The notes: a model not told the origin generated them from the letters alone. A stretch of 64,000 nt of DNA from Moniliella sp. 'wahieum' (GCA_003971905.1 RSEE01000009.1:434001-498000), one strand, 5' to 3'; positions 6,460 to 61,032 are shown, counted from the stretch's first letter. Program-made: numbers and translations.

Positions 6460-6990
6460 TTGAGCCGCGGAGCGCTGAAGCGTGAAGCTTGATATTTGAG
6501 GCTTGGAGGCTGAAGCTTAAAGAGCTTGTAGCTTGAAGAAGAGGGGCGTATATCCAACTGAATCGCATCACCTCCCCGCCCAGCAGTGCTTCGCTCCTGT
6601 CTCCCCGCTTCATCCCGCTCCGCTGTTGTTGCCCCGTTCCCGCCCCGCACTGGGGCACTGGAGCGACGGTTGGTCCACCCACGAGCCTCGATAGTCCATA
6701 GTCGGAAGAGCAAAAACCATTAGCTCTTCCACAAAAACCTCTGTGATATGCGTGACGGCATGCTAGAATGCGAGAGAAAATAGGAGGCCATCACCCTCAG
6801 CCTGAGGCCTCAGCGCGCCCCAGCCTAACCCCGCGGTCACCAACCGGCCCCGCGACCGGCCGAAGCTGGCCGGAGGCCTGAGAATGATTTACCGGGAAAG
6901 TAACGCAAAGGGTGAGCCGTAACGCGTAACGCCTACCGCGAACCGGTAACCGGTAACGAAGCGTAACCTCATGCGTCACGTGACGTGATA
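6460..6990. repeat. TNA+palindromic 4-mer 7-bp arrays (AGCT, GCGC, GGCC, CGCG, CCGG units)
   Basis: e.g. ~6913-6956 TGA gccg TAA cgcg TAA cgcc TAC cgcg AA ccgg TAA ccgg TAA; ~6797-6813 tcagcc TGA ggcc TCA. Confidence 0.7.
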
Positions 6991-8791
6991 CTGGCGCAAC
7001 ATGCAATAGGGTGGCCCTTGTCACCAGGCGTCGCCCAGGCGCTCAGGCATGCGGGACACATGGAACACGTCATGGAGGTGTTGTAGGCAGTCGGGAAGGA
7101 GGACCTGGTACGCGGCGCGGCCCACGGCGCGGACAATAGGAAAGGGTCGAGGTAGCGATAGTCGAGGCCGTCAGAAGGTCGCTGGCTAAGCACATAACCG
7201 TCCCGGCAGACCAAGACAGGCTGGCTCAGGACTTGGCTCAGGCGCTGGACCTCTGGATCTATATAGGCGACATCCATGACACGGAGCTGCATCGATGCAA
7301 GTGCAGTAGCTGTTAAACCTTAACTACGCATGACCTGTAGCATGTGAAGCTTGAAGACAAAATAAGGGGCGATCAAATGAGAATAAAATTTTCCTCGCAG
7401 AACTACGACCACGCCCAGCCCTGGTTGGGCATGGATCAACTCATACCACAAGTCCGACGCGGGGAGCGGGGCTTCCCATCTCTGCGCCCTTACCGGCGGG
7501 ATAGGGTCATCAGAGCGGGCCACCTCCCCCAAATAGGAGAGGCAACAAAAAGTCCGCTGGCCCACGCCGTTCCTCTTCCACGATCGTAACAGCCATAGGA
7601 CCATTAAGGAGCAGGTGCCCCGATCCAAAGCTTGACATGATGGTGGGGTAACTTTCGTATCCGCCGTCTTGCACTGCTCCCAATCCTGTCCGCGGCCCGT
7701 TTGAGCAACCCTTGCGGGCATGTAAGTAGAAACCAGAAATGCATAGAGAGAGAATAAAAGTGTCCAACAAACCCAAAGTCACCAAACGCCACGTCTCGGC
7801 GCCCAAGGGCAGGCCAAGCACTGGGCGAACGGCCGGCTTAAATTGGGTTGCCCAAGTCCAGGTTGCCTGCAAGCAAGTCCAGACCGGGTGGGCTTGCTCT
7901 TGGTCCTGGCTAATGCGCAGCAAGGCGCAAGCCTTCAGCCCAGGCCCCCTTGGTGTGGAGCTGGACAGCGTGCAGAACACGCCCGGGCCAAGACCGTGGT
8001 GGAAAAGAGCTAAGCTGGTTTGCGAAGGACCAGGCCGAAGAAAGAAATGCGAGTGATGTGGAGGCCAGATTGGGCGCATCCGTTTGCACCGATCTGCGGT
8101 GATTGGGAAGGGTGAACAGTGATTCCGCTGTGGTGCATTCCGGCTATGGCTGGCCTTGTGCCCCTGGCCTAAGTAAGTGTAGGGGGGGAGTGTGTCGGTC
8201 AGCACCGGCCAGCCGGCGCCTGGAGCTCCAAGCTGAGGCTGGAGAGTTGAGGCATTGCTCAGCCTGAGGCTCAGGCTTGGCGCGTGACGCCGAAGCGGAA
8301 GCTCGAGGTGAGAAGCTATGAAGCGTGGATACCACGCGTGCATGAGCGCTGGAGCGGAGCCAGGCTGAGTTGATGGATGATTGGGATCGATGACCACGGA
8401 TTCTGATTAGTGATTCCATTGTCTGGCGTTGCATCATCGGTACGCGGCACTGGCGCTGTGCTGGGCGCTGTGCTGGGCGGGGCGCGGGGTGGAGCGCAGC
8501 GACAGTGCGCTGGCCAGCCACGCGGCAGCGCGGGGGCAGCGTGCCGGCGCATGTGCCAGCTGCAGCGGCCGCGGCCTCCTATGGCGTCTGCTGGTATATA
8601 GCCCCCCCCCCCGCGCCGGCCCAGCCAACCCCCTCTCGCGCTCCCCCCTTGAAACGTTCACACCTGCTTGCCTGGCTAGTTTACCCCACCCTCCAACCCG
8701 CATCCACATCCGCCCTCAGTACTCAGTCTGAGTCCTCGCCCACACTCTCTCTCCTCCCTCCTCTCTCCCCCTCTCTCCCTCTCCCGGTACC

Positions 8792-9340
8792 ATGTCAGCG
8801 TCGGACGACGAGGCCTTTGCTGCTGCCGGCGCAGGGAGGACGAGCTGTCGTTGCCCAAGGCCACGGTGCAGAAGATCATCCAAGGTACGTATTGTTCTTC
8901 CCTCCTGGGCCCGCCTTTTGCCATGCATATGCTCTACTGTCCCAAGCACTAACCCACGTCTGCTTCCCGCGTTTGTGCGTTGCGGTACTCGATCCAGGAT
9001 ATCTCCCGCCCGAGCTGTCTTACGCACGCGACACCGCGATCTGTTGATCGAGTGTTGCGTTGAGTTTATTCACCTCCTCTCGAGCGAGTCGAACGAGATC
9101 TGCGAGCGCGAGTCCCGTAAAACCATTTCCCCAGATCATGTTCTCCAAGCCCTGAATGATCTGGGTTTGATCAGTTCACCCCTGCGTCCAAGAGGCACTA
9201 CAGAGTCACCAGCGATGGCCAAAAAGCGTGATTCCAAGTCTCGCAAAATGAAAGACACAGGCATGTCACCCGAGGAATGCTGCAGCACCAAGATGCTCTT
9301 TGCCCAATCCAAAGCACGGTACGATGCAACCACCAACTGA
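8792..9340 (+). CDS. NCB2: Negative cofactor 2 beta subunit (Dr1/NC2-beta, histone fold); intron 8885-8997
   Basis: EDELSLPKATVQKIIQ...RDLLIECCVEFIHLLSSESNEICERESRKTISPDHVLQALNDLG. GTACGT donor, CTAAC branch and CAG acceptor. TATATA at 8595-8600. Confidence 0.92.
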   Translation: MSASDDEAFAAAGAGRTSCRCPRPRCRRSSKVRIVLPSWARLLPCICSTVPSTNPRLLPAFVRCGTRSRISPARAVLRTRHRDLLIECCVEFIHLLSSESNEICERESRKTISPDHVLQALNDLGLISSPLRPRGTTESPAMAKKRDSKSRKMKDTGMSPEECCSTKMLFAQSKARYDATTN

Positions 9341-10294: not shown

Positions 10295-10301
10295 TATATA
10301 A
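10295..10301 (+). promoter_or_regulatory. Candidate TATA box of the carbonic anhydrase gene
   Basis: TATATAA about 95-100 bp upstream of ATG 10396. Confidence 0.4.
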
Positions 10302-10395
10302 CTGGCATCGCCCGCCCCACCCGTCCTACCCCCAACCGCCATTCTTGGACGTTGGTCTTTCGTAACTTCACCCGGCCCTATCCGACCCATCCGCC

Positions 10396-15889: not shown

Positions 15890-16160
15890 GCTGAGCGCTC
15901 AGCCTGAGCCTGAGCCACGCGTACGCGTGAACGCGTGCACGCGTGAACATTGAACGTTCAAGTTGAACCGAGCTAAACCTTACCCCCGCCTGCGCCAGCA
16001 CACTGCCCCTGTGCTGCTCTTCGGGGTGGGTTGTGGCTATAGTAGGTGCTGCGTTCAAGGTTCAAGCGTCAAGCTTACGCCCTTCCAACCCGCGCTGGTC
16101 GGTATTCTACACTGCCTCCCATATTCAGGCTGTGCTGAGCTGAGCCGCTGAGCGAAGGTG
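15890..16160. repeat. TNA+palindromic 4-mer arrays upstream of ISWI
   Basis: TGA gcgc TCA gcc TGA gcc TGA; cgcg TGA acat TGA acgt TCA agt TGA. Confidence 0.65.
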
Positions 16161-20372: not shown

Positions 20373-21445
20373 TGATTAATCAAGCTTCAAGCTTCAAGCC
20401 TTGAAGCTTGTTGCTTTACTTGGAAAGGGCTTGTTTTTTATCGCATGGTACGTGGTGCCCCCTGGCGCCCCGCACCGCAACTCCTGTCCTCGATTATCGT
20501 CGTCGCAAGGAAGGGACCGAAATGTGAAAGCGGCGTGAGGGGATCAACCATCCGTCCACTCACTGTGGTGGCCCAGTGGAAGAAGAATAGCATGATTGAG
20601 CCTCAGTCTGAGGCCTCAGAGCCTCAGGGTCATTAAGGTCATTGCCCAATCTCTCCTCCCGCAAAATGAGTGAAGGAACTTAATGCACTTAATGGCTGGT
20701 AACCGGCAAAGCAATAATATGGCCTAAGGCCCAAGGCCTAGTGAAATGCCATATAGCTTAAACAGGCCTAAAAAGCGACAACGCGGTCCGCACAATCATG
20801 TAACCCACAGGCCAGAGAGCTAGGGAAGGCTAGGGGCTGTCGTGGCGCCACACTGGTGGAGTGGCGCTGGTAGCGCAAGCCCGGATCCTTGCGGTATACC
20901 TTCCAGGATTCCTGGAGGGCAGGATGCAGGAATGCTCCTAGCCTCTCTGTAATAGTTCCTGCGCTGAGGGGCAATGCAATCCACCCCCAACTGCCTGCTC
21001 TCTGGCCTTCTACAACGATGGAATGGTTGAAGCGGTGGACTAATGGGGTGGGGCAAGTGGACGAGCGACGCTGGCCAGCAATGATCAGATTCAGATCTCA
21101 GAGGTTTGGAGGCAGATGCCCCCCCCGCCGGTTGCCTACTGCAGTTGCTGCGGTGTTGCACGAACTCCGCAGGACGATCGGCAGCACGAGGACACAGGCG
21201 CCGTGTGGTGGTTGAAGTAGCTGCCCCCCGCCACATTGTGACCCGAGGAAGGATCGGCATTCGGTTTGCCCTTGCAGCCCCAACGCGCACGCGTGCCTGG
21301 CGTTGCAGCTGTCCCATGTATCATCGACCACCGGCATCGACCATCGACCATCGACATCCGTCCCGTGCATCATCGGCATCATGTATCATGCATCCTAGCA
21401 TCATGCATCACTGCATCGTGCCGTGCACTGCCGTAACCGCGTAAC
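20373..21445. repeat. TNA+palindromic 4-mer arrays upstream of the SEL1 gene
   Basis: 20373 TGA ttaa TCA agct TCA agct TCA; ~20608 TGA ggcc TCA; ~21379 TCA tgta TCA tgca TCC tagca TCA tgca TCA. Confidence 0.7.
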
Positions 21446-22158
21446 CCTGCCGTGCATGCAGCCTGCGCCAAGGGGAAGACAAGCACGGGACGGCAGCAGC
21501 AGGGCGTTGGCTGGGAAAGCCGATCGATTGGCACTCTCCGCCGTGGGAGGGGCAGCATGGGGCCAGTGTCGATGGGAAGTGTGACAATGCGGCGCGCGAT
21601 CTGTGATGGTGGGTGAATACGTTGAATGGTGAATCGCTTTAAGCACTGCTCGGGCCCGGCGCAGGACGGGTGCTGGGCGTGTCGATGGAAGAAGATGCAC
21701 GTTCGATGCACGGGGGCCACTGGCAGCCACCGGGGCCAACCGCGGGCGCAGCCGCCTGCAGCAGGTGGCCAGAGCAGTGCTCGCCAGTCGGATGTGCGGG
21801 GGCATGGCGCCAGAGTGTGCCTGCCTCGGCTGCTGCGGCAGCTGCGGCTGGTGGGGAGAACTCCCCCCCTGGTGTTTATCGTTTACTATTGGGCGTTGGC
21901 ACCAGGCGTTGCGCCCTTAGGCCTTAGGCCTGACGCTCAGGCCGTTAGCACAGGCTCAGATCCTCCTCGGCACCGCATGGCGGCCTGCAAACACCGATCA
22001 TCAGCATTCTTCATTCATCCAAGACGCTGCGTTGTCCATTCCGTGGGAAGCCACCGCGCCACCTTCTATTTTGCAGCAGCCAGCGCGTCTTCCCTCCAGC
22101 TGCCTCTCTCTTCTCCCCATCCCCACCACACTCTTTTGTCCTGCGCCCCCCCACCACC

Positions 22159-25685: not shown

Positions 25686-26790
25686 TTTTGCAGTCGATAT
25701 AGCTGAAGCTGGAGTTGGAGGAGCAGGGCTCCAGCACCTCAGTGTCGATACATTGCCAGATTTTATGTGCGACTCGATTTTTCCCTGCACCAATAGCGCC
25801 CCAATACTCCTACTTCATCAGTTAACGCCCCTGGCTTGCCCAATCCAGCCAGCTGCAAAAAAGACTTGCCTAGTGAGTAGTAATATGTGGTAGCTATAGC
25901 AAACCAAGGAGGGCGAGCATAGGAGGCCCACATTGTCGGATACGCCGCCCGTGGACACGTTGACGACATTTCTGATGACCATGAGAGCCCGCAGGTATAA
26001 CACTGCTCGGACGTTGTTGAAGGTACAAAATACTTGGTACATTTATGACTTCTTTTTGAATCCATATCATTGAAAGAGCTTAAGGCTGGGACAGGGGAAT
26101 GTAATGCGCCGTGTGGTCCGGTCCTACGCGCCTGGACGGTCAGCAGAGATCGTTCTCTCGTGCGACGCGGGCACCACCAAACCCCCATCCCATCCGTTCT
26201 TTGCCAAGTGAGCACGTACGCGCACACCGGGCAGCAGCGAGCGGCCTGCTTGTAAGGCAAGGGGTGGCGATGGTTGGGGAGTGCAAAAGGGCGGTCGGGG
26301 AGGGGTGAGCACTGAGTATTGGCTGCAGCGTAGATCCGATCTCTGCCAAGGCCGAGGTTGTTGGCCGTAGAATTTCAGTCTGGGTTAGAAGGCGGGGAAA
26401 AGCTCAACTAGTGCCAGTAATCAGACCCTGTTTTTCAATTTTACCCAGCAATGTCACGTGTCAGCGGTCACCTAGGGTGATTCGTCAGTCTTCAGGCATG
26501 TCCTGTCCGGTGATACCGAAGGAGCACGGGGGCAGTGCGCAACGGCTTTGCGCGGTGTGAGGCTTGCAGCTGGAAGAGCGGCGCCGTGGGAGGGTTCTAG
26601 GCACGCGGGCGACGCAAGGAGCTGGCGCTGCAAGTGGCATTATGCATTGCGGGCAATCCGACGGCACTGCGACCACGTGTGACCTCCACCCCCACCACCC
26701 CCCCCCCCCCCCCCCAACCCCGCCGCCGCTGCCGCCGCCACCGCCACTGCCTTCACCGCATCGTCAACCCCTCTTGGAGCCACACCCGCT

Positions 26791-33447: not shown

Positions 33448-36109
33448 TCATCGCATCATCGAACATCGAGCATCCGCATCATTGCTGCACGCTCCGACAA
33501 GCCGTTTCGAATTGAGATGCCAGGGAAGACGAAGGGCATGCTTGTGCGGATCGTGGGAGAGCATCGGGTCGTCGAGCAAAAGGAACTTGACGCGTTCAAT
33601 CAACCCCTCCCCGCCCTCGAGGGGGAGGAACCCGCGATCAAAGCCATAGATCAGTGCCTCAAATGAGCGCAAATCTTCCGGCGACAGTTCCTTGGCCAAG
33701 CACCGGTACATTGACCTGTGGGCCAATAAGTCTTCCTCGGACACCCCAGGTACTGGCTCCGACGCTACCGCATTGGACACAGGAGTCGCCGGAACCGACG
33801 CAGCAGAGCCGTACGCCGAGCTGGGAGCGCTGGGGCTCGAGCTGGCGCTGAGCGGGGCCGAGAAAGGATCGTGCAACAAGACCTCCACTTCTTCCTCATC
33901 AAGATGTCGGTTCCGTACGTGCCGTTCCTGTGGGACAGGGTCATGCACCGGGCTCGTCGGGACACTCTCGTGCGACAGGGCCGACGGTGCAAACAAGTCG
34001 CCTGCGTTGGTGGGGATCGAGTCGTGGACACTGCAACTGGAGGCGGCACTGGAGGGACGAGTGAAAGTACGTTTGCGCGTACTGCGTCCCGATCCATTGG
34101 ACATGTGAGAGCGCACAGAGTGCAAACTGCTCCGTGGTCGCACCTGTGCCGGGACATTCTCTTTGCCCGTTCTCGTACTGGTACTCGTACTCGATTCGGC
34201 TAGGCTAGGAGAAAAGCCTGGCCCAGGGGGGCACGCTGGAGCTGAGTTCTGCTTGACATGACGGGTTAGATGAAGAGGCGCAGGTGAATTCTTCGCGTGC
34301 GAGGTTGCATGGGATCCAGGCGGGGAGAAAGAAATTGGGGTTGAAGACGACGGATCTTGGGCATTGTGCTGGGAATGGTACTGTTCCAAGATCTGCGACA
34401 GATCCGAAGTCGTGGAGGGCAAACCAGGCCCAGAAACGGGCATAAGGGTAGGTTCCGACACTGGCATCGCGCTCGCCATATCCCCTCCAGGGGTCGAAGT
34501 GTAAGGGGGTTCTTCCAAGGGTAACGATCCTCTGGTGAGGTGGGAAGCGACGTTGAGATCTGGTGGAAATTCCGTTCACGAAGGCGGAAGATCTATATGC
34601 TCCAGAGGCGGTGAGAGGGGCGCAGACTCCCTGGGAAGGTGATCCTCCAGCAACCCAAGCCGGGGGCACAGCCTCACCTTCCATGGCAGGCTGGGTCTCG
34701 GTCTCCTGCTCTGGCAAGTAGGAGACGTCTGTATTAGGGCCAGAGAGAATCCGGACCCAGCGAGAGACGGGCGGTACTGAAACGAAAGTAGAGGACATCG
34801 TCGGTCCACCTTCTCTCGGCTATCTGAAGAGACGGGGAGCGGGAGGGCCCACCCAAGGCATCGGCCATTGGCGCATGTCTTCATCTTGGGCCAGCACATC
34901 GGCCATTGTGTTGGCCCGATGGTGAGAACGGTAGATCCGTCGCGAACGAGGTTGAAGGGGTTGAGGGGGTGATGCAGAGGAGGTGGAATAAGTGCCCGCA
35001 GGGCGATGAGAGGAGGCTACCACGACCCGATGTGCGGCGAGGAGCGTCAACCCGAAGGGCGGGAGAAGATGGCAAAGGAGGTGTGGTGGACTCCAGCAGG
35101 GTGTCTAGCGCAGGAACAGGAGGTTTGGCAATAGCCGGAATTGGAGCCGGAGCCGGTGGGGCGGTAGCACGAGGCGTGGCGCAAGGCCGCGGCCAAAGGC
35201 GGTAGCTTCGCTTATGGCGCTGTCTCCACTCGGCCTTCTGTGATTTTCGGAGGAAGGTAATGTGCGTTGGTAGTGCTGAGCTGGATGCCAGCCAGAAGAT
35301 CGGCGAGCTGATTAGGGACCTGCTGAAGCGTTTGCTCCAACGCCATCTATATGAGACCCGAACAATTGGTCAGGAACTCCGCAACAAGACAAAAAAGTTG
35401 GCACATACCTGTTGGGCCGCGCGGGCCATGGAGGCCCACATGTCGGCATTGGCCTTTGCAGCTGCCAAGTTGGCGTTGGACTCCTGCAGTTCTCCATTGA
35501 GGAGGGCGATGGTGGTGGCAGCCTGGGCGCAAGTAGTTTGGAGAAACATGTTCTTGCTTGAGGTGTCGAGCTGGGCGCGAAGCACGCGTACCTCATCGGG
35601 CGGGGGGGGCGGGGGGGGCGGGGGTACTGGGTATGCGGGGGGCAGCAAATGCCAGGGGTGTTGTGGGACACTTGTTTTGCTACTGAGCGCGCTCTGGGTA
35701 CTATGAGAGCTGTTGCCACTGTGGCTGGGCGGAAGCGCTTCGGAGGCGCTGGTGCTGGTGTGAGAGGCAGGGGAGCGGGAAAGCAAGCTGGACTGGGTGC
35801 TGAGCGAGACCGAGGATTGTCGGCTGCTTGGTTTTGTGGCCCGACCGGGTGGTGGGGACGTGATGGGCGTGGCAGGGATTGAGGAGCATGAGCGGATGGG
35901 GGCGGGGGGGATGGTGGAGGCGCCGGGGCGGGGAGGGGGTGGGGGCGGAGAGGGAGCGAAACGGAGCGTGTGTCGGGACGGGCGGGTGGTTTGCGGGAGG
36001 CGCGCAGACGGCGCCAGGCATCGGCGCCGAGGGAGGAGGGTACGCGGCGGGGGATGGAGGCAGGGAAGGAGGCGGGGCTGTCGCGCCGGGTGAGGCGCGG
36101 GGAGAGCAT
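33448..36109 (-). CDS. Hypothetical Pro/Ser-rich protein with central coiled coil and helical C-terminal domain
   Basis: Chained ORFs 35312-36109, 35370-36218, 34820-35050, 34205-34798 and 33448-34518. EVRVLRAQLDTSSKNMF...ALLNGELQESNANLAAAKANADMW; C-terminal ELSPEDLRSFEALIYGFDRG. Confidence 0.6.
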
Positions 36110-36434
36110 GGAAGGGGGGGGGGGGGCGGCGGCAAGAAGGAGCGTGGAGGCGAGGAGAGGCGAGGAGAGAGACGATCACGGCAGGGCCAAGCAGCGCAGA
36201 GCATGCAAACCCACGCACAGCAGAGGCAGCCTGGGGGCGACCGGCTGGGCGTGGAAGGGCGGGGGAGACAGCCGACCAGCCGTCGATAATCTTTTTGCTG
36301 GCCCCCTAAACCTAAATAGGACGGGGATATCGACAGATGCATCCGCAGCCGCCTGCCAGGCACTGAATAATACGCACACGCGCTGCCTCAGCCCTGATTC
36401 CCTGCCGCAGCGGCGGTGTCCGCATGGCGCCAGA

Positions 36435-37170
36435 CGCGTGACGCGTGACGTGGGAGGGGGTGGTCGTACTGACGTCACATATCACGCGTCAACCGTCACG
36501 GTACGCGTAAGCCAACACCCACCCACCCACTCCGGTCGCTTCCACAAAGCGCCCCGCTGCTGCCCCGTAGCACTTGATTTGGGGCCACCAATCACGAATC
36601 ACCGGTCCCCCAGGCCCCAGTCATGCATCGCCATGCAGCATCCACATCCCGGTATCACCCATTGTGCACAAGCATCATGCATCACACGCCAACCAAGCGC
36701 AGGCAGTGCGGGCAACATGCGCCCCACTGCAGTCCACCGCCCACGGGCGCCACACCAGGCCACATCCGCCCACCGGCTCAAATGTGTGATTCAGCGCTCA
36801 GTGGCTCAGCCGTGAGGCGTGAGGCTCACGCTCGCGCTTTAAAATGTATCCCATCTCCAATTCATGGCTAGGCGCTAAGCGTTACTAACACGCACTAATA
36901 AACGTTGGTACGTTAAAAGTTAACGTCTAAACGTCCAAACCCTGTACTCCGTGGTACTCAGTCTGCTCTATCTGAGTACTCACAGTCTGAGTACTCACAG
37001 TCTGAGTACTCAGTCTGAGCGCTTAGGCTTAGGCGCTCAGGCTGAGCGCTTAGGGCTTGGGTGTAAGTACTAAGTAAGGACCAACAATTTCCGCCCTCTT
37101 CAGCTCGCCTCGCACCACGCGTCCCATCATGCATCATGCATCATGTCACATGGCACATGCCCCGGGCCAC
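36435..37170. repeat. TNA+palindromic 4-mer arrays, including a 15-bp tandem TCTGAGTACTCACAG (2 full copies + 1 partial)
   Basis: ~36438 TGA cgcg TGA; 36973-37050 TGA gtac TCA repeats and TGA gcgc TTA; 37127 TCA tgca TCA tgca TCA. Confidence 0.75.
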
Positions 37171-39140
37171 AGGCCACATGGGTGACTTGTCGTCTCCGAT
37201 ATCGTCCATCTCACCGGTCACCGGCAGGGCATGGCACGGCCGAGGCCCCGCTGGCCCCTCCACTGCCGCCCGCCCAGCCACCGCCCACCCCGCTGGAGCG
37301 TCCGCTTCGCTTACTTACGTAACACCATCCCCACCACCTCCTCCAGGTACGCGTGACCCGGTGGCCGCCTAACCATAAAGAAATTGCAGCCTGCCCGCCC
37401 GCGCACGGCTCAGTTTCGGGTTTCTTTGGTGGGCGTTTCACCACCTCAAGTACGAGCCCGAGGAGCGACCGACCGCGGAGGGCAATTGCAAATGCAGCGC
37501 CTGTACGCAAGACCATGTTCAACATTCAGGTACCCTCTCCATTCTTCCTTGTGTTTCGCCCTGGTAGTTGTGCGGTTGCTCAGCGCGCTCAGCGCTGCTC
37601 AGGCCCTGGTTTGCTCTCGCGCTGGACCCAGCGTCCAACGTCCAACCCCTAAACAGTCAGCACACACAGCTCACGCGTCACGCTTCACGGCCTCATGCAT
37701 CATGCACATGCCATACCCACAACCATCACGTGATGGTGGCCAACACATCCCCAGGTGGCAGCTTGTTGCCATCCGCCCTATATAGCACAGCCGACTGCGA
37801 GTCACGTGATTCGGCCCATTTTCCCCTCCTCCCTAGCCTCAGTTTCTCTGGACGATTCCGTCGCGGAAGCTTCTTCAAGCTTCATCAATTTATCCCAAGA
37901 CAATGTTTTCACACCCAGTGGGAGTAGAATCTAGGAAGGTCTCAGCGTACAACTAGCATCGCCTAGCGCTCGCCTGGGTACGCGGGTGGTAGCCTGTGGT
38001 GATCAGCGAGCCCGCCGTTTTTTTGGCGTCCAGGAGGAACCAGTGATTACTACACCAACCCCGAACTTATATGATGCCCCCCGTCTATACAGCCTTCTAT
38101 GGGCCCCGCCCCCACCTCCACCCACCGCCACAGAAACCGAACCACACCGGAGCCCAAACAACTCTTGGCAAGTTCCTTACTCGGTACATCCGGTACGCAG
38201 TAAGCATCTGCAGTCTGACCTAAGATCTGAGACTCAGATCTGCGCACTCGTTCCTCACGCCACCCACCACCTCCACCACCGCCGCCACCACCCATCCACC
38301 CACCGAACAAACTATTCCCCGAAACAGCAAGGGGAGAAAAGTGTGTCGCCCGAGCCTGTGGTTCCCTTCGGTGATTAATGTCTTTCTATGTTCCTTTCTG
38401 GAAGGCAGGAATATTCTCTAGCCTCTCCGTTGCTCTTGCGCTGATGCCCTGCAATGCAAACCCAGTATCTGGAAGCTGGAAGTGTTGAGCCACCGGGTGG
38501 CTCGTGCTTTGGCCAATGTCCCTTCAGTTCCTCCTCAGGCCTAGGAGTTCCGTTGTTTTTCTCTCCTGTTTTCCTTGTTCCGCAGCTTAGCCCCTGGTGG
38601 CGACTCGCTGTTTGATGTTCCTCAGTAGGCGTTGCTGGTTGGCTTAGACCATCACCACCCCATCAGTGCGATTGCATCACCCTCGAGGACCATCCGGACT
38701 CCAGGTCTCATCAGGAAGCCTGTTCCTCAAGCTTCAACTTACTAGTTACTATTGTTGCGAAAGCGATTAGATCATTCGTACATCAGTATCAATATAGGCC
38801 ATGAGGTACATGAGGAGGGGATATTTAAGGGCCCACCGACACCTCATTGCAAGGAGCGCGGAGCGCTGATTTTTCCACTCCGTTCCCTTCCGGCCTCTCG
38901 CTCGTTCTATTCTATCGCCTGGCCCTCCCCTGCGCCTTGCACCTTCAGAAAATATACGTGAAACAACAGCAGCGTAGAAAGGTTGGATGCATGCATGATT
39001 GGAGTTTCTTTTGTGAACTGAAAGTACTATTCTTAGTAGACTTGACGTACTACAAGCGCTAACATATATGCACTGTCCCGTTTTGCCCTGGAAAAACTGG
39101 ACGCTGGACGCTGGAGCTCCACCCAAACCGGATCCGCCTT

Positions 39141-39182: not shown

Positions 39183-41003
39183 CCCCCCCCCCCCCCTCTT
39201 CCCTCTCTTCCATCCTTTCACACCCCCTTTCACCGGCCATGCATCGGGCCATATGTCATTAAGACATTTATCATGGCAAATCTCTTGGTCACTCAAGTCT
39301 GTACGAAAGCTCACCGAAAGAGTTGCGAGATGGGAGGGAAAAGTCAAGGGCGCACGGAGATTAGTCGCCCTCTGAGATCCGAACCCGACACCGGATCACT
39401 CCGATCACCATAGTCACGGATCACTGACTTCACTTCCAGTACCTCAAATACTTTACCTCCAAAAACTCCACCATTCACTACTATCACTATTCAGTACGCA
39501 CGTCAGTGACCACCACCCTCTGCCCACACACAAAAGATAATCGATAAGTGAATTAAGGTTCAGCGTGACCCTTTGATTCCATCCAACACCCACACCACTC
39601 GCTGTTGCTGACGCTGAGATGGAAAAGTGGAGCAAAACAAGAAGAGTTATGCAGTTATGCAGCTTATGGGCGCTGAACGCTGCGGAGTTTTGTCGAGCAA
39701 TTTGCCCTTCGCGTTCCTATCGCGAATATAGGTGCTTGTGCCTTAACGGGTTTGCCATAGCAGCGTGGCGCAACCTTGATCCGTTTGCTCGTTGGATGAT
39801 CCTTGCATTTGCTGGAGCAGCAGTGTTCCAGCTTCACCCCCCCTGACAAGGTTGTTGAGCCTCTGGTCGCGTCCAAAAAGTTAGCCATGTGTTGCAACAC
39901 AATAAAAAACACAGGGATCGGGAAGATGGACGCATATGGCCATCAAGGTAAACCGCACAGCATGGGCAACTCTTCCGCGATGCAGGGACTAGGGTACCGT
40001 CAGGTGACTGAACAGCAGCTGCTACGGGGACCACTGGACCTGGCGTGAGAGGGCAATATGTAGGTAGTACCGCGCACTGGCGGCACCATCGGCATTGTCT
40101 GCACTCATTGATGGGCTCCGAGCAATTATCGCACGTACTATGCTCCCTCTGAAACGTATCAGACTAGGGCTCATTTCTTGGCCAAAGTGGGCCATACAAA
40201 ATATTACCTCTCCTAGGTTACGGGGGGGGGGGGGGGGTAAGAAGGGGAATGAATTTGCGGTCAAAGGGGGCGCTTTTGCCACTATAAAGCGGGGGCACAG
40301 CACGACCAAACAGTAGGAACAGTAAACACAGTAGGAATAGTAGAGGATCGGCAGGGGGAGACAGTACTACCAAACACCAGAAGAGGGGGGGAGAGAACAT
40401 GACGGGAAACATGCCAATGGACTTATAAACGGCAAAGGAAAAGGTGAGGAAAAGGGGGGCAGTATACGGTGAGAGCATGTGAGCCTGTGAGCCTGCGCGC
40501 ATGCCTGGGAGCGCGAGAGCGTGGAAATCCCGAATGAAGCGGGCCCCGCTGGAGAGGATATAGGACCGGAGGGGAAGGTGCGAAAAGACCGAGACGGATG
40601 CGGGACGGAAAAAGGAGAAGAAAACAAGGGAAACGAAGGGGAAAGGGAGGAGGGCACGTGCCAACCATGCGGAACGAGCCGTTCGAAACGAAGCCCATCG
40701 AATGGGGGCAGAGTGACAGAGGGACAGAGAGGAACGGGGAAGATAGGGGAAACGGGGGAAACGTAGATGGTGGGAGGGTGAAACGAGGTCAAGCAAAGGA
40801 AAGAGGGCAAGAGGGCAAGAGACCCAGAAAACGCATCAGACGTGCCTCGCGCGAAAAGACAACGGGTCCAATGCCGACAACCAACAACCGACAACGGTAT
40901 CGAGGTATAACCAACACAAAACAAGAAAAGGGGAAGCGAGACACCCACAAAACAAGAACCAGAAACGAAGTTTGCATACGCATTACGCCGCGCATGTATC
41001 CCT

Positions 41004-43943: not shown

Positions 43944-44465
43944 TCAGCGCTCAGGCGCCCAGGTTCATTGAACAGCTTAAGCCTAAGCGCTGTTGTATGT
44001 GACAGACATGCGACCGGGTTACGGATGATCGGTGACCGCTGATCTTGTCCAGTAGTGATAGAGTGACTAGTACTAGTGTGTGTTGGTGACGCGGTGACGT
44101 GTGTCGTGTCCTATGATCGAATAATCGATGATCGATGATCGGCAATCGGTGATCCTGTGACCTCGTCCCGCATCAGTGACCTGCACCTAATGCCAAGCAG
44201 AGCGCTACTGACATGGCTGACATGCGTGAGCGCTGACATGTGACATGTGATGCATGTGACAAGGCAATACTTCAGCTGCGGCAGCGCGGCAACGCAGTCG
44301 CACGCCGAACCACTGCCCCCGTACCCCCTCTCTCCTAAGAAAAAAAGGGGCCCTAGGGTTGGCTCCACCTGTCCAGGGGCGAAGGAAGGTGTGGCAAACG
44401 TACCAAACAAGCCAGGTTGGCGATCATCGATCATCGATCACCGATCGCCGACATCGATCGATCAC
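43944..44465. repeat. TNA+palindromic 4-mer arrays (TCGA, CATG, GCGC, CTAG)
   Basis: 44122 TAA tcga TGA tcga TGA tcgg CAA tcgg TGA; 44227 TGA gcgc TGA catg TGA catg TGA tgca; 44424 TCA tcga TCA tcga TCA. Confidence 0.8.
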
Positions 44466-48621: not shown

Positions 48622-49027
48622 GGCGAGAGGATGGGGGAGGTGGAGTCCGGGGGTGGCGAGAGGGGCAGAGCAGGTCGGGCGGCGGAGAGCAGCGGCGACT
48701 GCGTAACAATGCATCGTACCTGCGTCACTGACGCGTGATGGGCATGCATGCATGACGGCGTCTGCCGGGCCTTGCCCAGGCAGCGCCGCCCCACCAGGCC
48801 GCCGCCACCACCAGTGCCACCCAGCAGGCACACTGCTCCTGCGCCGGGCCCCGCCCACCCACCGCCCCAGTCACCGGCCCCTGGTCACTGGTCACGTGCC
48901 ATGGTATCATATATCAACCCCCTGACGGAGTAGATGCGTGGGGCTGCGTTGGTGCCTGCTCGCACTGGGTAGCTGCCACCGCAGCGGCAAACCTGCTGAC
49001 CCATCGCAGATCCCACATCCACACATC

Positions 49028-49063
49028 ACATTTCACATTTCACATTTCACATTTCACATTTCA
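49028..49063. repeat. 7-bp tandem (TCA catt)n, a one-mismatch variant of TCA catg
   Basis: tcacatttcacatttcacatttcacatttcacatttcac. Confidence 0.8.
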
Positions 49064-49539
49064 CCCTCCGGTCCCTTGTTGTCTACCTATCTCCACCCCC
49101 CACGCGCAACAATACCAACACCACATGCCACACACCACAACAACACATCACAAGTTTTAGGTTGCTGAATGAACGTTCAAGTTGAACTCGCTCCCCCCAC
49201 CAGCGTTGGCCGTGCCTAATGCGCTGCGGCCGCCAGGGGCAACTTGGCTACACCAAGTGAAGCATGCTTGAACGTTGAACACAAAAATGAAAAAAAAGCG
49301 ATTGCAGTTTTTCAAATCTCTCTCATCTCAAACGCTCGTTACAGCGTTTCCTTGTTTGTTCTTCCTTCACCACCCCCACCTCTTCGCTCCGCTCGTTGTA
49401 GTTCAGATCTCAGACCGCGCCGTCTGTCTGCCGTAGTACGTCGCCACAGGCCTAAGGTCCAGTACGCCACACTAGATGATGAGAGGCGACGCGATTCTGT
49501 ACCAGGAGTTAGTCATCTCGGTGGAATCACTGCCCGCGC

Positions 49540-49730
49540 TCTACGTTCAACTCAGTACTCAGCTCAGCCTGAGCGCTCAGGGCCTAAGCGGATACTCGCT
49601 ATTTGAGTACTCCCACTGCACTCACTCAGGTCAGTACGGTCAATCGTACTCAGTGTCGTCAGTTACTCAGTAACTCAGCTATTCGTCAGCGCCTCAGCAC
49701 TCTTCAGCCTCTCAGCCAGGCTGAGCCTGC
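49540..49730. repeat. TNA+palindromic 4-mer arrays (GTAC, GCGC, GGCC), degenerate
   Basis: TCA gtac TCA gc TCA gcc TGA gcgc TCA g ggcc TAA. Confidence 0.65.
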
Positions 49731-52352: not shown

Positions 52353-52569
52353 GATTGTGGCTGGTAAGTTGGGTAGGTGGATGGGTGGTGATGGTGGTGA
52401 TGAGATAGGGGATCCACCAACGCCTCAGCGCTGAAGGAAGGAAGGAGAACAAGAGAGTGCAAATCTGCATACACAAGGAGTGTGACCACGGGAGGGGGAG
52501 TGTGGTCCTATAACGTGTGACGTGAACCGACCCGCCTGCATTTACAACAGAAGCAGGCTCGTGCGAAAA

Positions 52570-53915
52570 AGTTCGATCGATTGATCGATCGCATTGAACC
52601 GTCACGCGTCCGATACGTCACGCGTCACACACCCTGCATAGCACGAGGGCACTGTTGACCCCCCCGTGCCTCCCCCCTTTGCATGTTACAACAGAGGTGA
52701 TGGATATGGATACACCGGACACCCTGGCAGCTCCGACTGTGTTTCAAGCTCAGGTCACACTAGTCACTGGTTCGCTGGTCACAAGGTCACGCGTCGCCTC
52801 TCACGCGTCGCGCGTCACGTGTCACTAACCACCAGGTAGTCTGACCTAGGGCTGCCTAGTGCCTAGAGCCCGAGCCGAAGCAGTGCCACACACGTCACAT
52901 GTCATGCATGTCATGCATCATGTATCATGCATCATGGCCTCCGATCTGGAGGATCCGATGGTGACGTCGTCATCTTCGCGGGTGGTGTATGAGTTGGACG
53001 ATCGAGAGCTGAAAGGCCGGCGGCTTTCGACGCTGGCTTGAAGCGTGACGCGTGACCAGAGCCTGACCGGACCCAGCCCAGCATCTATGGCTTGCATGGT
53101 ACACCCAGCCGAGCCGAAAGCGCAACAGCTGTACATTGTGGTCCTTTCGACCCAGGTGCTGGGAACGGCCAGTACAAGTTGGAATCCTACATGACGTGAC
53201 CGTCAGCTCCAGTCGCCATCCCCATCCCTTCAATCAGCTATGGGCGCTGCATACTACGCAGGGAGAACAAAAACACCAATTCCCTGAGTGTGGTTGGGCG
53301 ACCGAGTTTTCGGCTAAGCCCCAAGACCCAAGATCTAAGAAGAGGTGAACCTGTGCGCCTCAGCGCCTTGCTTTTCGGTGGCAAGTCTGCCAATCCTTAG
53401 GCTGCGGTGCTGAGCTGCCTGAGCGCGCTGAGCTGAGGAAACAGCTCACGCCTTCAAGCATCGAAGCTCGAAGGTGACCGGTGACTAGCGGTCGTCACCG
53501 GTACATACTTAAATCGATCACCCTAGGCTGAGGGCCTCAGGCCTCCAGCTTCAGGAGCTTCAAGCTTCACGAATCGTGCATGTCGCCACTCTTGGTTTAA
53601 TTGGGCCGAAGAGCGAGGCATCGCACGCGGAAAGTCGAAGCCACTGCCAGTGTATGGGCCCGCGCAAATGGCAAGGAGGGAAATGGAGTGCCCTTTAGGG
53701 GCAGTAGTGGGTTAGCCCTGGCAGTGTCTCTGTTCTCTTTTGGCCTTCAGGCCTCCTCAGGCCTCAGGCCGGACTGTAAGATCTGCCGCCACTGTTTCGC
53801 TCGAACGCAGCTCCAATCCCGCATTCTCCACTAAGTACTAAGGCCCAAGGCCCAACCAAGGCCTAACCCCTAACCCCCCCCACCCTCCTGATCTAAGATC
53901 TGAGCACTCTCAGCC
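52570..53915. repeat. Several TNA+palindromic 4-mer arrays upstream of the MFS gene
   Basis: ~52618 TCA cgcg TCA; 52895 TCA catg TCA tgca tg TCA tgca TCA tgta TCA tgca TCA; ~53475 TGA ccgg TGA ctag; 53757 TCA ggcc TCA ggcc; 53832 TAA gtac TAA ggcc CAA ggcc. Confidence 0.75.
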
Positions 53916-54573
53916 ATCAGGAGGCTCATACGCCATACGCCACAAAAGGCAGTGTGGTGGTTTGGGCGGTGGCTGTGCCTGTCACCAGCAACCATCCGAC
54001 CATGGCTATATCAATCTGTGGTGCAACGTGCACATCAGTTCCAACGAGGTCAGGAGTGGGAGGGACATGGCACTGTGGCCTGCTTCTCTGAGCGTGTTGA
54101 CCTGCCGGTCACACTAGGCAAAGGCAAAAGGCCTTATATATTAATTATTAGAGAAAGGGCCTATAACGAAAATCCGGCATAAGGGTTAGATTACCCGTCT
54201 CTTCGCGGAAAAGCCACACACAGTCAACAGCCACAACGTTGATCTCGACTACCCTAAAAATGCAGCTCAGAGTGGGACGCACTACGGCAGGCAGACGGTG
54301 CGGTAGGAATGAGCCAGCGGTGTCTACTGACACGTGCGGCTTACAATCGGGGAACAAGGTGGAGGCGCCACGGATAGGACCGCGCGCAGGCTAAAGCTCA
54401 AACAAACATCTAACTAACAGGGCAGTGCCCCTCACAAAAGCCACGGTGCAACATCAGCTTCTGCGAGAAGATCTCTGAGTATGTTTGCTGCAAAAACACG
54501 CCCAGCATGCCCAACAGGGTCATGCCTAGCATCAGGCAACGATATTAGATGCAACAGTACTACTACTCGGTCT

Positions 54574-55090
54574 TTCAGCTTCAAGCTTCAAGCTTCAATG
54601 GTTAAACGCTTTGTTATACGTTAAAACGCGCGTAACGACGTTGCATATAACGGTTAACGCGTAACGGTTAACTGGTAACCGGTAACCGGTAAGGCCTAAG
54701 GCCGGTAACTGGTAATCGATAATTCTTAGTCCCTGGGAGTCATCACAATTATGCTGATCCTTAGTCAAGCTTCAGCATACGGGGCTCATCTACGAGCGAT
54801 GAGCTTGGTGAGCCTCACCGCTGAGAGAGCCTGATATAGGCATTTTAGTAGCGTTTCTTTTGACCCAACTAAGCTTATACTCTGTGTCAAACATGTAAAA
54901 CTTGTAGAGGGTGTAAAGGGTCATCGATCAAACTTGAAGCTATGTTGTTCAACGCGTTCAACTGAACGTTGAACGTTCAACGTACGTTCATCAACGTCAA
55001 CGCTCAACGCGTTCAACGGTTCAACGTCAACGTTCAACGTTCAACGTTCAACGGTTCAACGCTCAGCCCGCTCAGTGCTGAGCTCAGCCG
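54574..55090. repeat. Long TNA+4-mer arrays (AGCT, CGCG, CCGG, GGCC, TCGA; then ACGT)
   Basis: 54648 TAA cggt TAA cgcg TAA cggt TAA ctgg TAA ccgg TAA ccgg TAA ggcc TAA; 55027 TCA acgt TCA acgt TCA acgt TCA. Confidence 0.88.
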
Positions 55091-55578
55091 CACCGCTCCA
55101 AAGCAGTTACTACCATGGTGCATGTGATGCACGCATGACGTGCATGACGATCCGGAGGGGCGGGCGGGTTGGTCGCTGTGTGGAAGATCCGAGGAGAGCC
55201 CGAAGAGAGTGATCAATGATTAATTCGAGCTCATTTTCGCTCATGGTCAATTCTTATAGGCACACACTGGTGACCCTCTCAGCTGTTTCCTTCCTGGCAA
55301 CATGCCCCTTCTGCCTCCTTGAGTACTTCTTGCCCTGCTAGCCTTCCCAGTAGGGCTGACTCCTGCAAGACTATTACTGATGAAGTATTTGCGTTCGGCA
55401 TGAAATCGGAGGAGAGCGCGGTCCCCAGAGGCAGGAGCTCTATTTGCCCGCATTTTCCGCCGCGGCGTCGTTGGTGTTTCACATGTGGCGCCAGCGACTC
55501 TCTCGGGGATGATCGATGGTCGATGATCAGTGTCTTAGATCCCCCGCTGATCTAGTTATGCAAGTGATGTTCGCGCGC

Positions 55579-55920
55579 TCATTAATCATTCACATGCATG
55601 AGTTAGCCGGTGATCGCTGATCGATGACATCGATGACATGTGACATGTGACATGTGGCATGGACATGCATGACAGTCACGCTAGTGACGAGTGACTAGTG
55701 ACTAGTGACTAGTAACGAGTGACTAGTGACTAGTGACTAGTCATACTGGCGTGACATTTAGTGACTCGCTTTTTGAAGCTCGCTGTACTTTAACTTAAAG
55801 CTTCCATGTCATGCATCATGCGTTGCTAGCTTCGCTCTTAGTATGTCGCGCCGGTTCGCATTACCGAGCAAATATTGAAGACAGGAGATGTTACGGATTA
55901 CGCGTTACGCGTTACCAGTA
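55579..55920. repeat. Long TNA+4-mer arrays (TTAA, TCGA, CATG, CTAG, CGCG)
   Basis: 55634 TGA catg TGA catg TGA catg; 55685 TGA cgag TGA ctag TGA ctag TGA ctag TAA cgag TGA ctag TGA ctag TGA ctag TCA; 55891 TTA cgga TTA cgcg TTA cgcg TTA. Confidence 0.88.
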
Positions 55921-56709
55921 CCAACAGTCCTGTTTGTGGTCTGCCAGCGCGACCATACACACCTATGACACGCAGATCGTCGCCAACAGGTCGGTTGAAC
56001 AACCGCTACGCGTATGCGTTTTGCGTTACTTTTCGTCCGCGTCTCTATTACAGGTTGTTTCCATCCCCACCAAGCTCCAGAAACAGGTTCAGCGCTCTAG
56101 GCTCTCAAGTGCTCATCGAGCTCATCGGGAAGCACATATGTCGCATGCATCATCCTCTGTTAGAGGGTAGTGCTAGTGTTCCCCTGCGCGGTCCTCAAGT
56201 CGATGAACAGTGTGACGCTCGCCAGGACCCGGGGCTCCCCAAGGTCCTGATCTGATTGATACGCGACAAGTGCTTCTATATATAGCAGGTGGAACAGCAC
56301 ATTGTAAAAGGCAAATGGTCTTTTCTCCTCGACTCCTTCCCGCGACCAGCAGGGGTGAGAATGTGCCCCTCCTCCAGCTTGGAGAGCATCGCGGCTGTCT
56401 CGGGAGACAGCTGTACGTATACTGTAATGAGTATTTTCTCCTCGCTCTTGTATGCCGTGCTGAAAGACATCATACTCACCTCGCCTGTGGTAAACGTACA
56501 GCACGTCTCGTCGTCAACACTACACGCGTGCCAGGGATGGTGGCGCCTTCGGAGGCAGGTAAAGCGCTTGCGCTGATTCACGGGTGAAGAAAGTTTAACG
56601 CGTTTGAATTGCCCTCGAGGTCCGCGCGTCGGGGGAGGCAGACATGGTTGCGACCGAGTCGCACTCAAAGGCTGAAGTCAGCAGTCAGCACCACGACATG
56701 GACGCGACG

Positions 56710-56895
56710 CGACGCTTCGGCGGGACCCGAATGAGTCGGATATACAAGTAAGCACCTCCGGCACCCGGTGAAGAGTGTTGTACCAACCCTGCTGTTAATA
56801 ACCAACAGTTCATCCCGTTCAAAGGTGCTTCTTTGGGCGAAAATCGACCAAAATTTGGTCGTCCCGTTCGTTTGCCCCTGTAAGGGCGGATGAAA
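56710..56895 (+). ncRNA. Candidate structured RNA element, family unknown
   Basis: C(UUCG)G hairpin at ~56713-56722, stem AAGCACCT(56750-57)/AGGTGCTT(56823-30), hairpin at 56845-56861, and an 11-bp hairpin at 56867-56894 with three G-U pairs on the + strand. Confidence 0.25.
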
Positions 56896-59078: not shown

Positions 59079-60984
59079 ATTGCACAAGATACAGCTTCGT
59101 ACTCTTGCAGCATTCTGAATTTACCATGTTCTGCTGATGGCGCCGTGGTGGGGAAAGCATAAATGGTGCGGGTAGATTGAAAACCTACTAGGGCTAGCGT
59201 TGGATGTTATGTGTGGTGGTAAGTGGAAGTGGAAGTGTACCAAGAATAGGATCATCTGCATGATCTGATAGAGGCAGCTAGTAAGAAGTAGGGCTTTTTG
59301 CATTCCATGACTTGGGTAGCTCTCCATCACTAGTAGGCCTCTCACCTCTGCATTGGGATGTTCTGCTCTTATCGGCGGTCACCGCCCTCATCCAACGGCG
59401 CTTGAAGCGCGTGACAGTTAGCCTACTTCTTTCCATCATGATTCAAGTTCCGTTTGGTTTTCTTTCTTCAGGCGAGAGTTGAGAGGTATGGCCACGTAAA
59501 TTAACACAAACGAAAGCTGCAAGGAAACATGATATTGACACGATACTTAACCATACTAAACTTGAACTTTTTTACTGCGAGTCTGAAGCAGCACAAAAGG
59601 CTCATGTCAGTAATCATCACCAAGGGCCGACTCATTGAAAAGGTCAGAGACGAATACACGGTCTCTCATAGCGGTCCTACCCGCTCTGTGTTGGATTGTT
59701 CACAGTAAAAGGTAATTTGCTCATCTTGAGAAGTGATTGGAAGGTAGAACTCACTAGCTAGTTAACATAGAACGCAAACTGTCCAAGATTGAGCGTTTTG
59801 GTGGTGAGGTGGTGGGAGACAAAAGTGGAACGGAAAAAAATGCAGGCTAAATAACGAACAATCAGATCTCAGATCACATTCCATTTCCGCTCAGAGCGGA
59901 ATTGGTCACACTTGTGGAGCTGTTTTGGATCAAGATGGGATGATACCGATATTGTTCACTCCCTCAATCCTCCATAGCCGTTTGTGCTCACGCTCACCGC
60001 ACATCGTTGGCCCAGGAGACCATCCCGTTCCAACCCTATGTGACACCTTACTGGTTACGCTTTGGCTGTTTTCCTCGTCGTGCTGGCCTTATTGATCAGC
60101 AACAGCATCATGTTTTCATCATGAGCTACCTTTTGGCTCTCGTTTGTCGCCTCCATTGAAATGATTGTGTTGAAGACACTACGCATGACTCTCAACGATC
60201 AGAAAGTGACCACCGTACATGAGGATACGACCGCTCCGCGGCCTTGACTCGGTTGGGCTTGGGAGCGAGCCCTGCTAATACTGGACAAAGCATCGGCCCA
60301 TAGATCGGATTGGATTCGCAGAGCCAAAAAAGCCTTCTTGGGAGCAGGAAAACTGAGAAGGGGAAGCTCTGTTGGTCCACCGGCCAATGCTCGCCTCTTC
60401 CGGGACTTGGAAGAGAGAAGGGCTCGGGCGGCCGGCTTGCCAAAGTTCTTCCGGACTACTGTACGGGTCCACGGAGTTCGGAAGAGGATGGGCACGCTCC
60501 GCTGGCTCGCCAGTGTTCGTTCGTATAGCACACTCGTAAAACAGCACCGCATTTCTATATCAAAAAAGGGACAAAAAGGAGTCGATGGATGGATCACGTA
60601 CTGCTTTTGATCATCATTGCTGTCCAAGGTTTCCATAGAGACAAGGAAAAGGCATGCAGGTAGATCGTATTACACTCGCAGCGAAGTTGAAGAAGATACG
60701 GCTATGTATAGGCCACTTTGATGTGGGAGGGAGGGACGTTGATACTCTTGAGCCCCTCAACCTGCGGAGCGAGCCTGCCGACAAATGAGGTCAGCGTGAG
60801 GTGCGTATCTGTGGGTTCTCAAGAGGAGGGGAGAGGTGGAGGTGAGGAGCGGCGAAAACGAGGCAAAGGTAAGATGGGCAGCAACCCCTAATCGGAGTGG
60901 CTTGTGTGGAGCAGCGGGCATGAGGAAGAGCGCATAGGGGCAGTGTTGTGTCGGGCAAGGTGGGTGGATGAAAGAACTCGAGGT

Positions 60985-61032
60985 TAAACGTTAAATGTTC
61001 AAGTTGAACGTGTTGAACGTTAAACGTTAAAT
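60985..61032. repeat. TNA+ACGT array about 180-220 bp upstream of CCT4
   Basis: TAA acgt TAA atgt TCA agt TGA acgtgt TGA acgt TAA acgt TAA. Confidence 0.8.

Follow-up and report, generated by a model that had tools for sequence, protein, structure and literature searches.

Between the genes of the 64,000-nt stretch of Moniliella sp. 'wahieum' considered here (GCA_003971905.1 RSEE01000009.1:434001-498000, one strand, 5' to 3'; hereafter the window, with positions counted from its first letter) lie many short repeats that look unrelated to one another but can be parsed by a single rule, and the question raised is what writes them. In a first-pass annotation of this DNA, more than a dozen intergenic tracts were described as arrays of period 7 in which a T-N-A triplet (TNA, also written T.A, N being any base) is followed by a self-complementary 4-mer. 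After counting, the rule takes a more general form: a perfect short palindrome, usually 4 bp, stands between direct copies of T-N-A, at a density of roughly one locus per kilobase of window. Here, the size, specificity, anatomy and distribution of this pattern are described, and the processes that might produce it are weighed.

Size of the effect

In total, the window contains 240 instances of T.A-N4-T.A, and the central N4 is palindromic in 104 of them (43%), against a background of 6% among all 4-mers of the window. These 104 matches make up 66 loci when loci are separated wherever matches lie more than 30 bp apart; the tracts are thus many and separate, as first described, and their number had been understated. 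Dinucleotide shuffling of the whole window (100 shuffles) leads to an expectation of 7.8 matches and yields at most 13 loci, and 200 shuffles confined to 300-bp blocks give 7.9 matches (sd 2.8, maximum 16), whereas T.A-N4-T.A with a non-palindromic centre is barely enriched (136 observed vs about 116–125 expected). The comparison of palindromic with non-palindromic spacers against shuffled DNA, which had been put forward as a test of the rule, therefore bears it out within the window. The predicted periodicity is seen as well, the autocorrelation of T.A having its maxima at lags 7 (2.18-fold), 14 (1.66-fold) and 21 (1.66-fold). Perfect period-7 runs of 14 nt or more number 51, of which 28, measuring 14–27 nt, are quasi-palindromic; in every one of these 28, the odd dyad is T.A. 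On inspection, each example position of the first-pass annotation carries the unit assigned to it (15892, 20373, 20380, 36973, 37127, 38221, 44122-44129, 44227, 44234, 53757, 54581, 54676, 55027, 55634, 55692, 55898 and 60985).

The palindromes themselves are drawn from nearly the whole available set. Fifteen of the 16 possible 4-mers occur, ATAT alone being absent; the initial figure of 13 was right about ATAT and had missed AATT (50069) and TATA (48907, 54134). Their usage approximately follows base composition, and the types made only of A and T are rare. The N of the two flanking triplets is the same in 78 of the 104 matches, complementary in 14 and otherwise different in 12, and it is the same on both sides in 33 of the 45 isolated loci. 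Among the mixed forms, TGA-pal4-TCA outnumbers TCA-pal4-TGA by 12 to 2.

Specificity for T-N-A

When X3-pal4-X3 was counted for all 32 strand-collapsed triplets, a strong excess was confined to TCA/TGA (59 vs 2.0 expected) and TAA/TTA (19 vs 0.33), that is, 30–58-fold, and the remaining 30 classes lie near chance, at about 1–3-fold, the best of them being CCC/GGG (9 vs 3.9). Other self-complementary centres combined with a palindromic 4-mer show no enrichment, with 6 vs 8.3 for A.T, 18 vs 26 for C.G and 33 vs 26 for G.C. This restriction of the enrichment to T.A points to a sequence-specific step. Between T.A triplets, a 2-nt palindromic spacer is not enriched (28 vs 28.9), the 4-bp spacer reaches 13-fold, and longer palindromes are found at 6 nt (5 vs 1.8, 2.8-fold), at 8 nt (5 vs 0.52, 10-fold) and, in one case, at 12 nt; the fixed 4-mer spacer of the original description therefore holds as the dominant form, beside which spacers of 6, 8 and 12 nt exist. 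A general excess of palindromes in the window was considered and rejected, the enrichment being limited to A-pal4-T hexamers and T.A-centred 7-mers, for which it drops to 1.34-fold and 1.15-fold, respectively, once period-7 runs are masked.

Anatomy of blocks and arrays

Period-7 arrays exist as first reported, and in addition many loci are single T.A-pal4-T.A blocks of 10–14 nt. In the 33 isolated loci with the same N on both sides, the period-7 run measures 10 nt in five, 11 in three, 12 in eight, 13 in nine, 14 in six and more in two. Nine of these loci are counted as full two-unit duplications and 24 as spanning 10–13 nt, from which it follows that most isolated loci correspond neither to a bare '3 + 4 + 3' block nor to a 7-mer duplicated in full. 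Extension past the 10-mer is mostly one-sided and amounts to at least 2 nt on both sides in only three of the 33, and duplication of a 7-mer centred on N was accordingly rejected for most of them. The excess of blocks with one error (about 99) is close to that of perfect blocks (about 97), implying that the blocks are young, turn over fast or are under constraint.

Within arrays, units with different palindromes may follow one another in phase: TGA-TTAA precedes TCA-AGCT at 20373; TGA-GCGC, two copies of TGA-CATG and TGA-TGCA succeed one another at 44227-44241; and two copies of TAA-CCGG are succeeded by two of TAA-GGCC (54676, 54683). By our estimate, about four such in-phase junctions occur, compared with roughly 0.5 by chance. 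Because different palindromes follow in phase and most isolated loci fall short of two full units, plain slippage is probably insufficient as an explanation, as had been argued at the outset. Signs of later copying are seen too. Inverted pairs of one unit lie 19–270 nt apart (44124/44417, 54963/55030, 36433/36475 and 52785/53036), two 37-nt copies within 54947..55065 are distinguished by flips of N, and one array forms a 28-bp higher-order repeat (55686..55745). The edges of arrays tend to coincide with the two dyads. Long arrays are predicted to fold as hairpins with 6-bp stems and N.N mismatches (z −4.5 to −6.3); among three short arrays, folding is marginal for two (z −0.5 and −0.8) and moderate for the third (z −3.3).

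Some other repeats of the window touch on this pattern. At 49026-49064 stands a perfect (TCACATT)5.6, which has period 7 and contains TCA; its CATT is no palindrome, the strand does not fold, and the unit is a single change away from TCA-CATG or TCA-AATT. Repeats built on CTNAG motifs (CTGAG, CTTAG and CTCAG), with periods of 6, 9–10 and 13, occur at 15891-15916, 37015-37054, 37577-37602 and 53409-53437; they have the x-T-N-A-x' core in common with the heptamer rule but not its 7-bp step. The base at N may also be locally polarized between strands. Nearly all T.A triplets on the + strand are TGA over the 240 bp of 44020-44262 (GTGAC, GATGATC and CTGACATG), and beyond an adjoining unique core of 150 bp they switch to TCA at 44417-44460; at 36482-37875, all are TCA.

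Position relative to genes

Gene orientation was taken from Pfam-supported frames (13 genes) and coding signal from codon periodicity in 300-bp bins, a map of long open frames being too crude a proxy for coding in GC-rich DNA and a codon-usage gene finder too weak for gene models. The loci keep clear of gene bodies, and the upstream side of genes holds most of them. Within 800 bp upstream of the 13 oriented genes there are 20 loci (28 matches), compared with six within 800 bp downstream, two of which are also upstream of the next gene. Only one of the 104 matches falls inside gene spans, which with their introns total 21 kb, and it sits at a 5' edge; the bins that hold matches have low codon periodicity (0.09 vs 0.15). 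The largest cluster, at 52.4–55.9 kb, is upstream of a gene for a major facilitator superfamily (MFS) transporter, and no locus is found upstream of the ABC, kinase and histidine phosphatase genes. The idea that T.A serves as a stop codon, a period of 7 placing TGA/TAA in all three frames, was dropped because the orientation of N is inconsistent with the neighbouring genes.

Lineage distribution

For comparison with other organisms, metagenome contigs were scanned for (TCAAGCT)3, which gave 121 loci, the long contigs being used as a negative control. In contigs of at least 1.5 kb that contain this array (634 kb), other T.A-pal4-T.A loci number 160, compared with 160.1 expected, and units that flank the array in phase but carry another palindrome occur as often as chance predicts, 5 of 83 units having T.A. 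The rule is thus lineage-specific and no general property of such arrays, and the same agreement calibrates the enrichment test. In contigs shorter than 1.5 kb, 19 such loci are found vs 10.7 expected, and a few of these metagenome contigs (L067 and L097) resemble the window in having CGCG, GGCC, AATT and GATC blocks beside the seed array. Judging from these sequences, relatives in which the same process operates probably exist, represented in independently made assemblies. A further metagenome contig of 3740 bp (L038) is bacterial and has two oppositely oriented copies of a TCAAGCT-type array, one on either side of a small gene that lies between two operon genes; by its appearance, the sequence may encode sulfate assimilation; these arrays are unrelated to the fungal rule.

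A proposed break-and-repair model

Tentatively, the reading that we favour is a lineage-specific mutational process that writes the blocks at TNA breaks, as opposed to selection of binding sites. What such a process has to account for has been observed, namely the rule and its specificity, the direct TNA repeats, the mixed in-phase arrays, the presence of inverted copies, the position on the promoter side and the restriction to a lineage; what the model would supply is the break, its stagger, the enzyme and the making of the palindromic junction. DNA would be broken at TNA with a stagger of 3 bases, and fill-in of the staggered break would duplicate the triplet, as it does with the DDE transposases of the PIF/Harbinger type (PHIS, the PIF/Harbinger-ISL2EU-Spy superfamily). 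The two ends would then be joined via a short inverted-repeat junction, with the outcome that one event would add 3 + 4 = 7 bp and leave two TNA targets in place of one. Since the targets are doubled at each event, repeated events would build in-phase arrays, possibly with different palindromes. From two units on, slippage, multi-unit unequal exchange and strand switching could copy, invert and spread units locally, and the process would be active where chromatin is open, upstream of genes.

The predominance of the same N on both sides, among all matches as well as among isolated loci, is as target duplication would give. Likewise, the identical T.A triplets flanking the palindrome form the 3-bp direct duplication of TNA/TWA that a PHIS footprint should leave. 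According to PMC4482050, the target-site duplications (TSDs) are TWA for PIF/Harbinger and C-TNA-G, the duplicated TNA having any N, for the NuwaII group, whose hosts include two basidiomycetes. Of the three candidates named in the first-pass annotation, footprints of a transposase with a 3-bp TSD consequently fare best on account of the TNA duplication, and fall short in that the window holds no element, transposase or dispersed repeat. Hairpin-type P nucleotides derived from the TNA flank, which had been attached to that candidate, were rejected on logical grounds, because copying of the flank would give T-N' and no arbitrary palindrome.

A considerable number of points weigh against the break-and-repair reading. 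An element with inverted ends between TNA flanks was sought in the window and not found, three candidates with arms of 9–10 nt being at chance level; no dispersed repeat is present in the 64 kb; and the search for DDE nucleases that had been suggested yielded no transposase family among the 221 open frames of 110 aa or longer in the window (E ≤ 1e-4). The C...G target flank of NuwaII was not seen outside isolated blocks, whose listed flanks have no excess of C or G, and the complementarity of the outer bases is at chance level at the first two positions (0.24 and 0.18). According to PMC4482050, the ends of PHIS elements start mostly with G or A and those of NuwaII with GG; here, 43 locus-types begin with A or G vs 35 with C or T, and GGCC is present in 6 of the 66 loci, which is not the bias that such ends would leave. 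Footprints of transposon ends should be few in type, and the palindromes resemble a random dinucleotide followed by its reverse complement. A pure '3 + 4' event predicts that the period-7 run stops at the 10-mer, as it does in only 5 of the 33 isolated loci. A density of one locus per kilobase would require very many events. Harbinger-type excision is mostly precise, and we can offer no detailed chemistry by which a TNA break, once filled in, would acquire a palindromic 4-mer of arbitrary sequence.

Some of these objections would be avoided by a nuclease free of any transposon, coupled to palindrome-forming repair. It may be, although we hold this with considerable doubt, that a TNA-specific nuclease of this fungus and a few environmental relatives, perhaps a domesticated Harbinger-type transposase without a transposon, repeatedly cuts open promoter DNA, whereupon repair writes 7-bp units of 'TNA + random palindrome'.

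Alternative explanations

It is possible, though less likely than not, that the blocks are a class of microsatellite arising from replication errors alone, in which near-self-complementary heptamers pair in slipped and fold-back register and no site-specific break takes part. Much of the anatomy fits: the copies within arrays are direct and in tandem, N being the same in 78 of the 104 matches, the long arrays fold as hairpins, inverted copies of the same unit lie close by, N flips between the 37-nt copies as inversion of a dyad-symmetric segment predicts, a 28-bp higher-order repeat has formed, array edges favour the two dyads, and all palindromes are used roughly by base composition. Folding, however, favours long arrays, whereas the two- and three-unit blocks that form the majority have almost no folding energy in two of the three cases folded, and isolated loci reach two full units in only 9 of 33. 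Unrelated in-phase neighbours would need at least two coordinated changes. Replication errors also leave T.A unexplained, given that A.T, C.G and G.C are equally self-complementary and lack enrichment, and they account neither for a period of 7 rather than 5 or 9, nor for the upstream bias, nor for the absence of the rule from contigs in which other organisms carry the same array.

That the blocks are selected promoter elements is improbable. A factor might touch T.A triplets 7 bp apart, or the repeats might open promoters or tune expression, as tandem repeats in yeast promoters do, and the 20 upstream vs six downstream loci, the nearly empty gene bodies, the parity of perfect and one-error blocks and the 12-to-2 preference for TGA-pal4-TCA would all be in keeping with this. 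Selection of a protein site is nevertheless unlikely because proteins read bases and not self-complementarity, 15 central palindromes are used as composition predicts, and N is repeated instead of inverted; the complementary N expected of a homodimer site is found in only 14 of the 104 matches. Besides, the upstream regions of the ABC, kinase and histidine phosphatase genes are empty, and the orientation of N relative to the neighbouring gene is inconsistent. The dimeric factor reading TNA-N4-TNA that was among the initial candidates loses ground on the same counts, any palindrome being accepted in the centre and N being the same in 78 and complementary in 14.

It is very improbable that the blocks are scars left at promoter hot spots by dyad-symmetric cutters, topoisomerase II (Top2) or Spo11, another of the initial candidates. 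The symmetry of T.A, 4 nt and T.A does match that of a cut staggered by 4 bp, each scissile bond having the same triplet on its 5' side, and the blocks are on the promoter side of genes. Fill-in would, however, give 4-bp or 2-bp duplications instead of a 7-bp step with a duplicated TNA, and these enzymes do not require 4 nt that are palindromic whatever their sequence. The mild enrichment of directly repeated identical palindromic 4-mers (37 vs 16.3) is matched by that of non-palindromic ones (480 vs 268), so that the overhang duplication which such scars should show does not stand out. Neither TNA nor the 7-bp step is explained by such cutters. An assembly or base-calling artefact is hardly credible, as the blocks are diverse, lie within unique sequence, keep out of coding DNA and track the orientation of genes, and as mixed blocks of the same kind recur in short environmental contigs of other projects (L067 and L097, and the 19 vs 10.7 loci under 1.5 kb).

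The window and its genes

The window is nuclear fungal DNA of about 58% G+C, with genes for TCP-1, ribosomal protein eS1, an SNF2 ATPase of the ISWI type, a protein kinase, an F-box protein with leucine-rich repeats (F-box/LRR), an MFS transporter and others. All of the best eS1 homologues come from Basidiomycota, the top match overall having 73% identity, and the named matches, at 69–72% identity, are from Ustilaginomycotina (Pseudozyma flocculosa, Malassezia, Microstroma and Jaminaea); on protein similarity, the host lineage is that of a basidiomycete fungus. The principal blocks and arrays are listed in Table 1.

Table 1. Blocks and arrays of T-N-A with palindromic 4-mers in the window
Position	Units	Context or arrangement
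6483..6520	TGA-AGCT	two blocks
6918..6957	TAA-CGCG then TAA-CCGG	
15892..15960	10-bp palindromes TGA-GCGC-TCA and TGA-ACGT-TCA	ACGCGT repeats in between; upstream of ISWI-like gene
20373..20409	TGA-TTAA, in phase TCA-AGCT x3	then inverted copy (fold-back)
21915..21933	TTA-GGCC x2 then TGA	
36433..36497	TGA-CGCG array	inverted TCA-CGCG block 19 nt off
36971..37073	TGA-GTAC-TCA 10-bp palindromes; CTNAG-type TGA-GCGC-TTA units; TAA-GTAC-TAA	10-bp palindromes at 15-bp period
37125..37224	TCA-TGCA x3 and TCA-CCGG x2	
37671..37706	TCA-CGCG, CGCT, CGGC units, then TCA-TGCA x2	
44113..44141	TAA/TGA-TCGA array	left arm of inverted pair
44227..44261	TGA-GCGC, TGA-CATG x2, TGA-TGCA	in phase
44421..44459	TCA-TCGA array	right arm, 95% complementary to 44124-44145
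48729..49579	CGCG, TATA, ACGT x2, GATC, GTAC, GCGC	seven separate blocks, upstream of F-box/LRR gene
52425..55950		3.5-kb cluster upstream of MFS gene; about 27 of the 66 loci (our count); no long open frames until 55798
52895..52936	TCA-CATG then TCA-TGCA	
54577..54598	TCA-AGCT x3	
54648..54722	eleven TAA triplets	eight in phase: CGGT, CGCG, CGGT, CTGG, CCGG, CCGG, GGCC, GGCC
within 54648..54722	CTGG, TCGA	after 2-nt shift in TAA tract
54947..55065	TGA/TCA-ACGT arrays	N flips between 37-nt copies; palindromic spacers ACGCGT and ACGTACGT
55618..55656	TGA-TCGA then TGA-CATG x3	
55686..55745	TGA-CTAG x3, twice	28-bp higher-order repeat
55898..55915	TTA-CGCG x2.5	
60985..61032	TAA-ACGT and TGA-ACGT	immediately upstream of TCP-1 gene

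Several other features of the window are of note in their own right. A very long open frame on the + strand (1-3650) contains dozens of diverged 30-nt repeats, each encoding 10 residues rich in E, P, T, A, K and V with a consensus near AEPTVEETKA; its product is probably a large repetitive acidic protein, and a search of the frame against Pfam gives no more than a weak extensin-like match. The stretch at 4000-6000 is G-rich and strongly strand-asymmetric, with a GC skew of 0.35 across 2 kb, and long runs of C or G occur at 26689-26715, 35598-35624 and 40222-40237, comprising C27 with interruptions, G16 and GGGCGGGGG x3. These non-coding G-rich or run-containing stretches (all four) have zero TNA-palindrome blocks. 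At 53840-53877, (AAGGCCC)2.3 adjoins (CCTAACC)2.3, the latter reading TTAGGGG on the opposite strand, which is telomere-like and present in two copies only.

Relation to known systems and significance

Relatives of the PHIS elements insert near genes, mPing combines gene-proximal insertion with precise excision, and the extended targets of PIF and Tn10 are palindromic. The blocks are like the target duplications of the NuwaII group within PHIS (PMC4482050) in having a 3-bp T-N-A direct repeat with any N and in occurring in a basidiomycete; a short inverted-repeat remnant between triplet copies, moreover, has the look of a deleted element or footprint. They are unlike PHIS in that the window lacks an element, inverted ends, a transposase and the C...G flank, that 15 palindromes take the place of one or two end sequences, and that many-unit arrays exist and periodicity reaches beyond the 10-mer. 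The footprint of Sleeping Beauty, a Tc1/mariner transposon, is TA-C(A/T)G-TA. It shares with the blocks a duplicated target around a few end bases, and thus a short scar that is dyad-symmetric except for an ambiguous base at its centre, but differs in its TA target, its fixed scar sequence and the single scar per event, without arrays.

Among repeats, hairpin-forming and quasi-palindromic microsatellites are similar in having tandem, self-complementary units and long arrays that fold, and polymerases together with a nicking or restriction enzyme make palindromic tandem repeats in vitro, where the site of the cutter is present in every unit as TNA is here. Each of those systems has one unit sequence, whereas in the window one grammar covers 15 palindromes, T.A and the 7-bp step both being fixed, and it operates in vivo and mostly upstream of genes. 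The tandem repeats of yeast promoters are likewise short, unstable and concentrated upstream of genes, but they are mostly AT-rich simple units without a symmetry rule. No description of the TNA-palindrome rule was found in the full-text literature searched, which leaves out most subscription journals, so that this is no proof of absence; work on palindromic repeats in Fusarium mitochondria and on tandem repeats in Daphnia has no bearing on it. Promoter microsatellites and transposase scars are known kinds; there is a real chance that an enzyme-written class of repeat of a new kind is at hand.

Short tandem repeats are usually seen as passive products of polymerase slippage, and here a strict grammar holds at about one locus per kilobase. 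If the blocks proved to be pure products of replication, their absolute need for T.A would point to an unknown structural or enzymatic rule of slippage. If they are instead written by site-specific break and repair, this would be a new mutational mechanism that shapes promoters, as well as a natural system in which to study palindromic junctions at breaks. Should a TNA nuclease be responsible, the blocks would represent a new, enzyme-written class of microsatellite and a readable record of the history of breaks in the promoters of this lineage.

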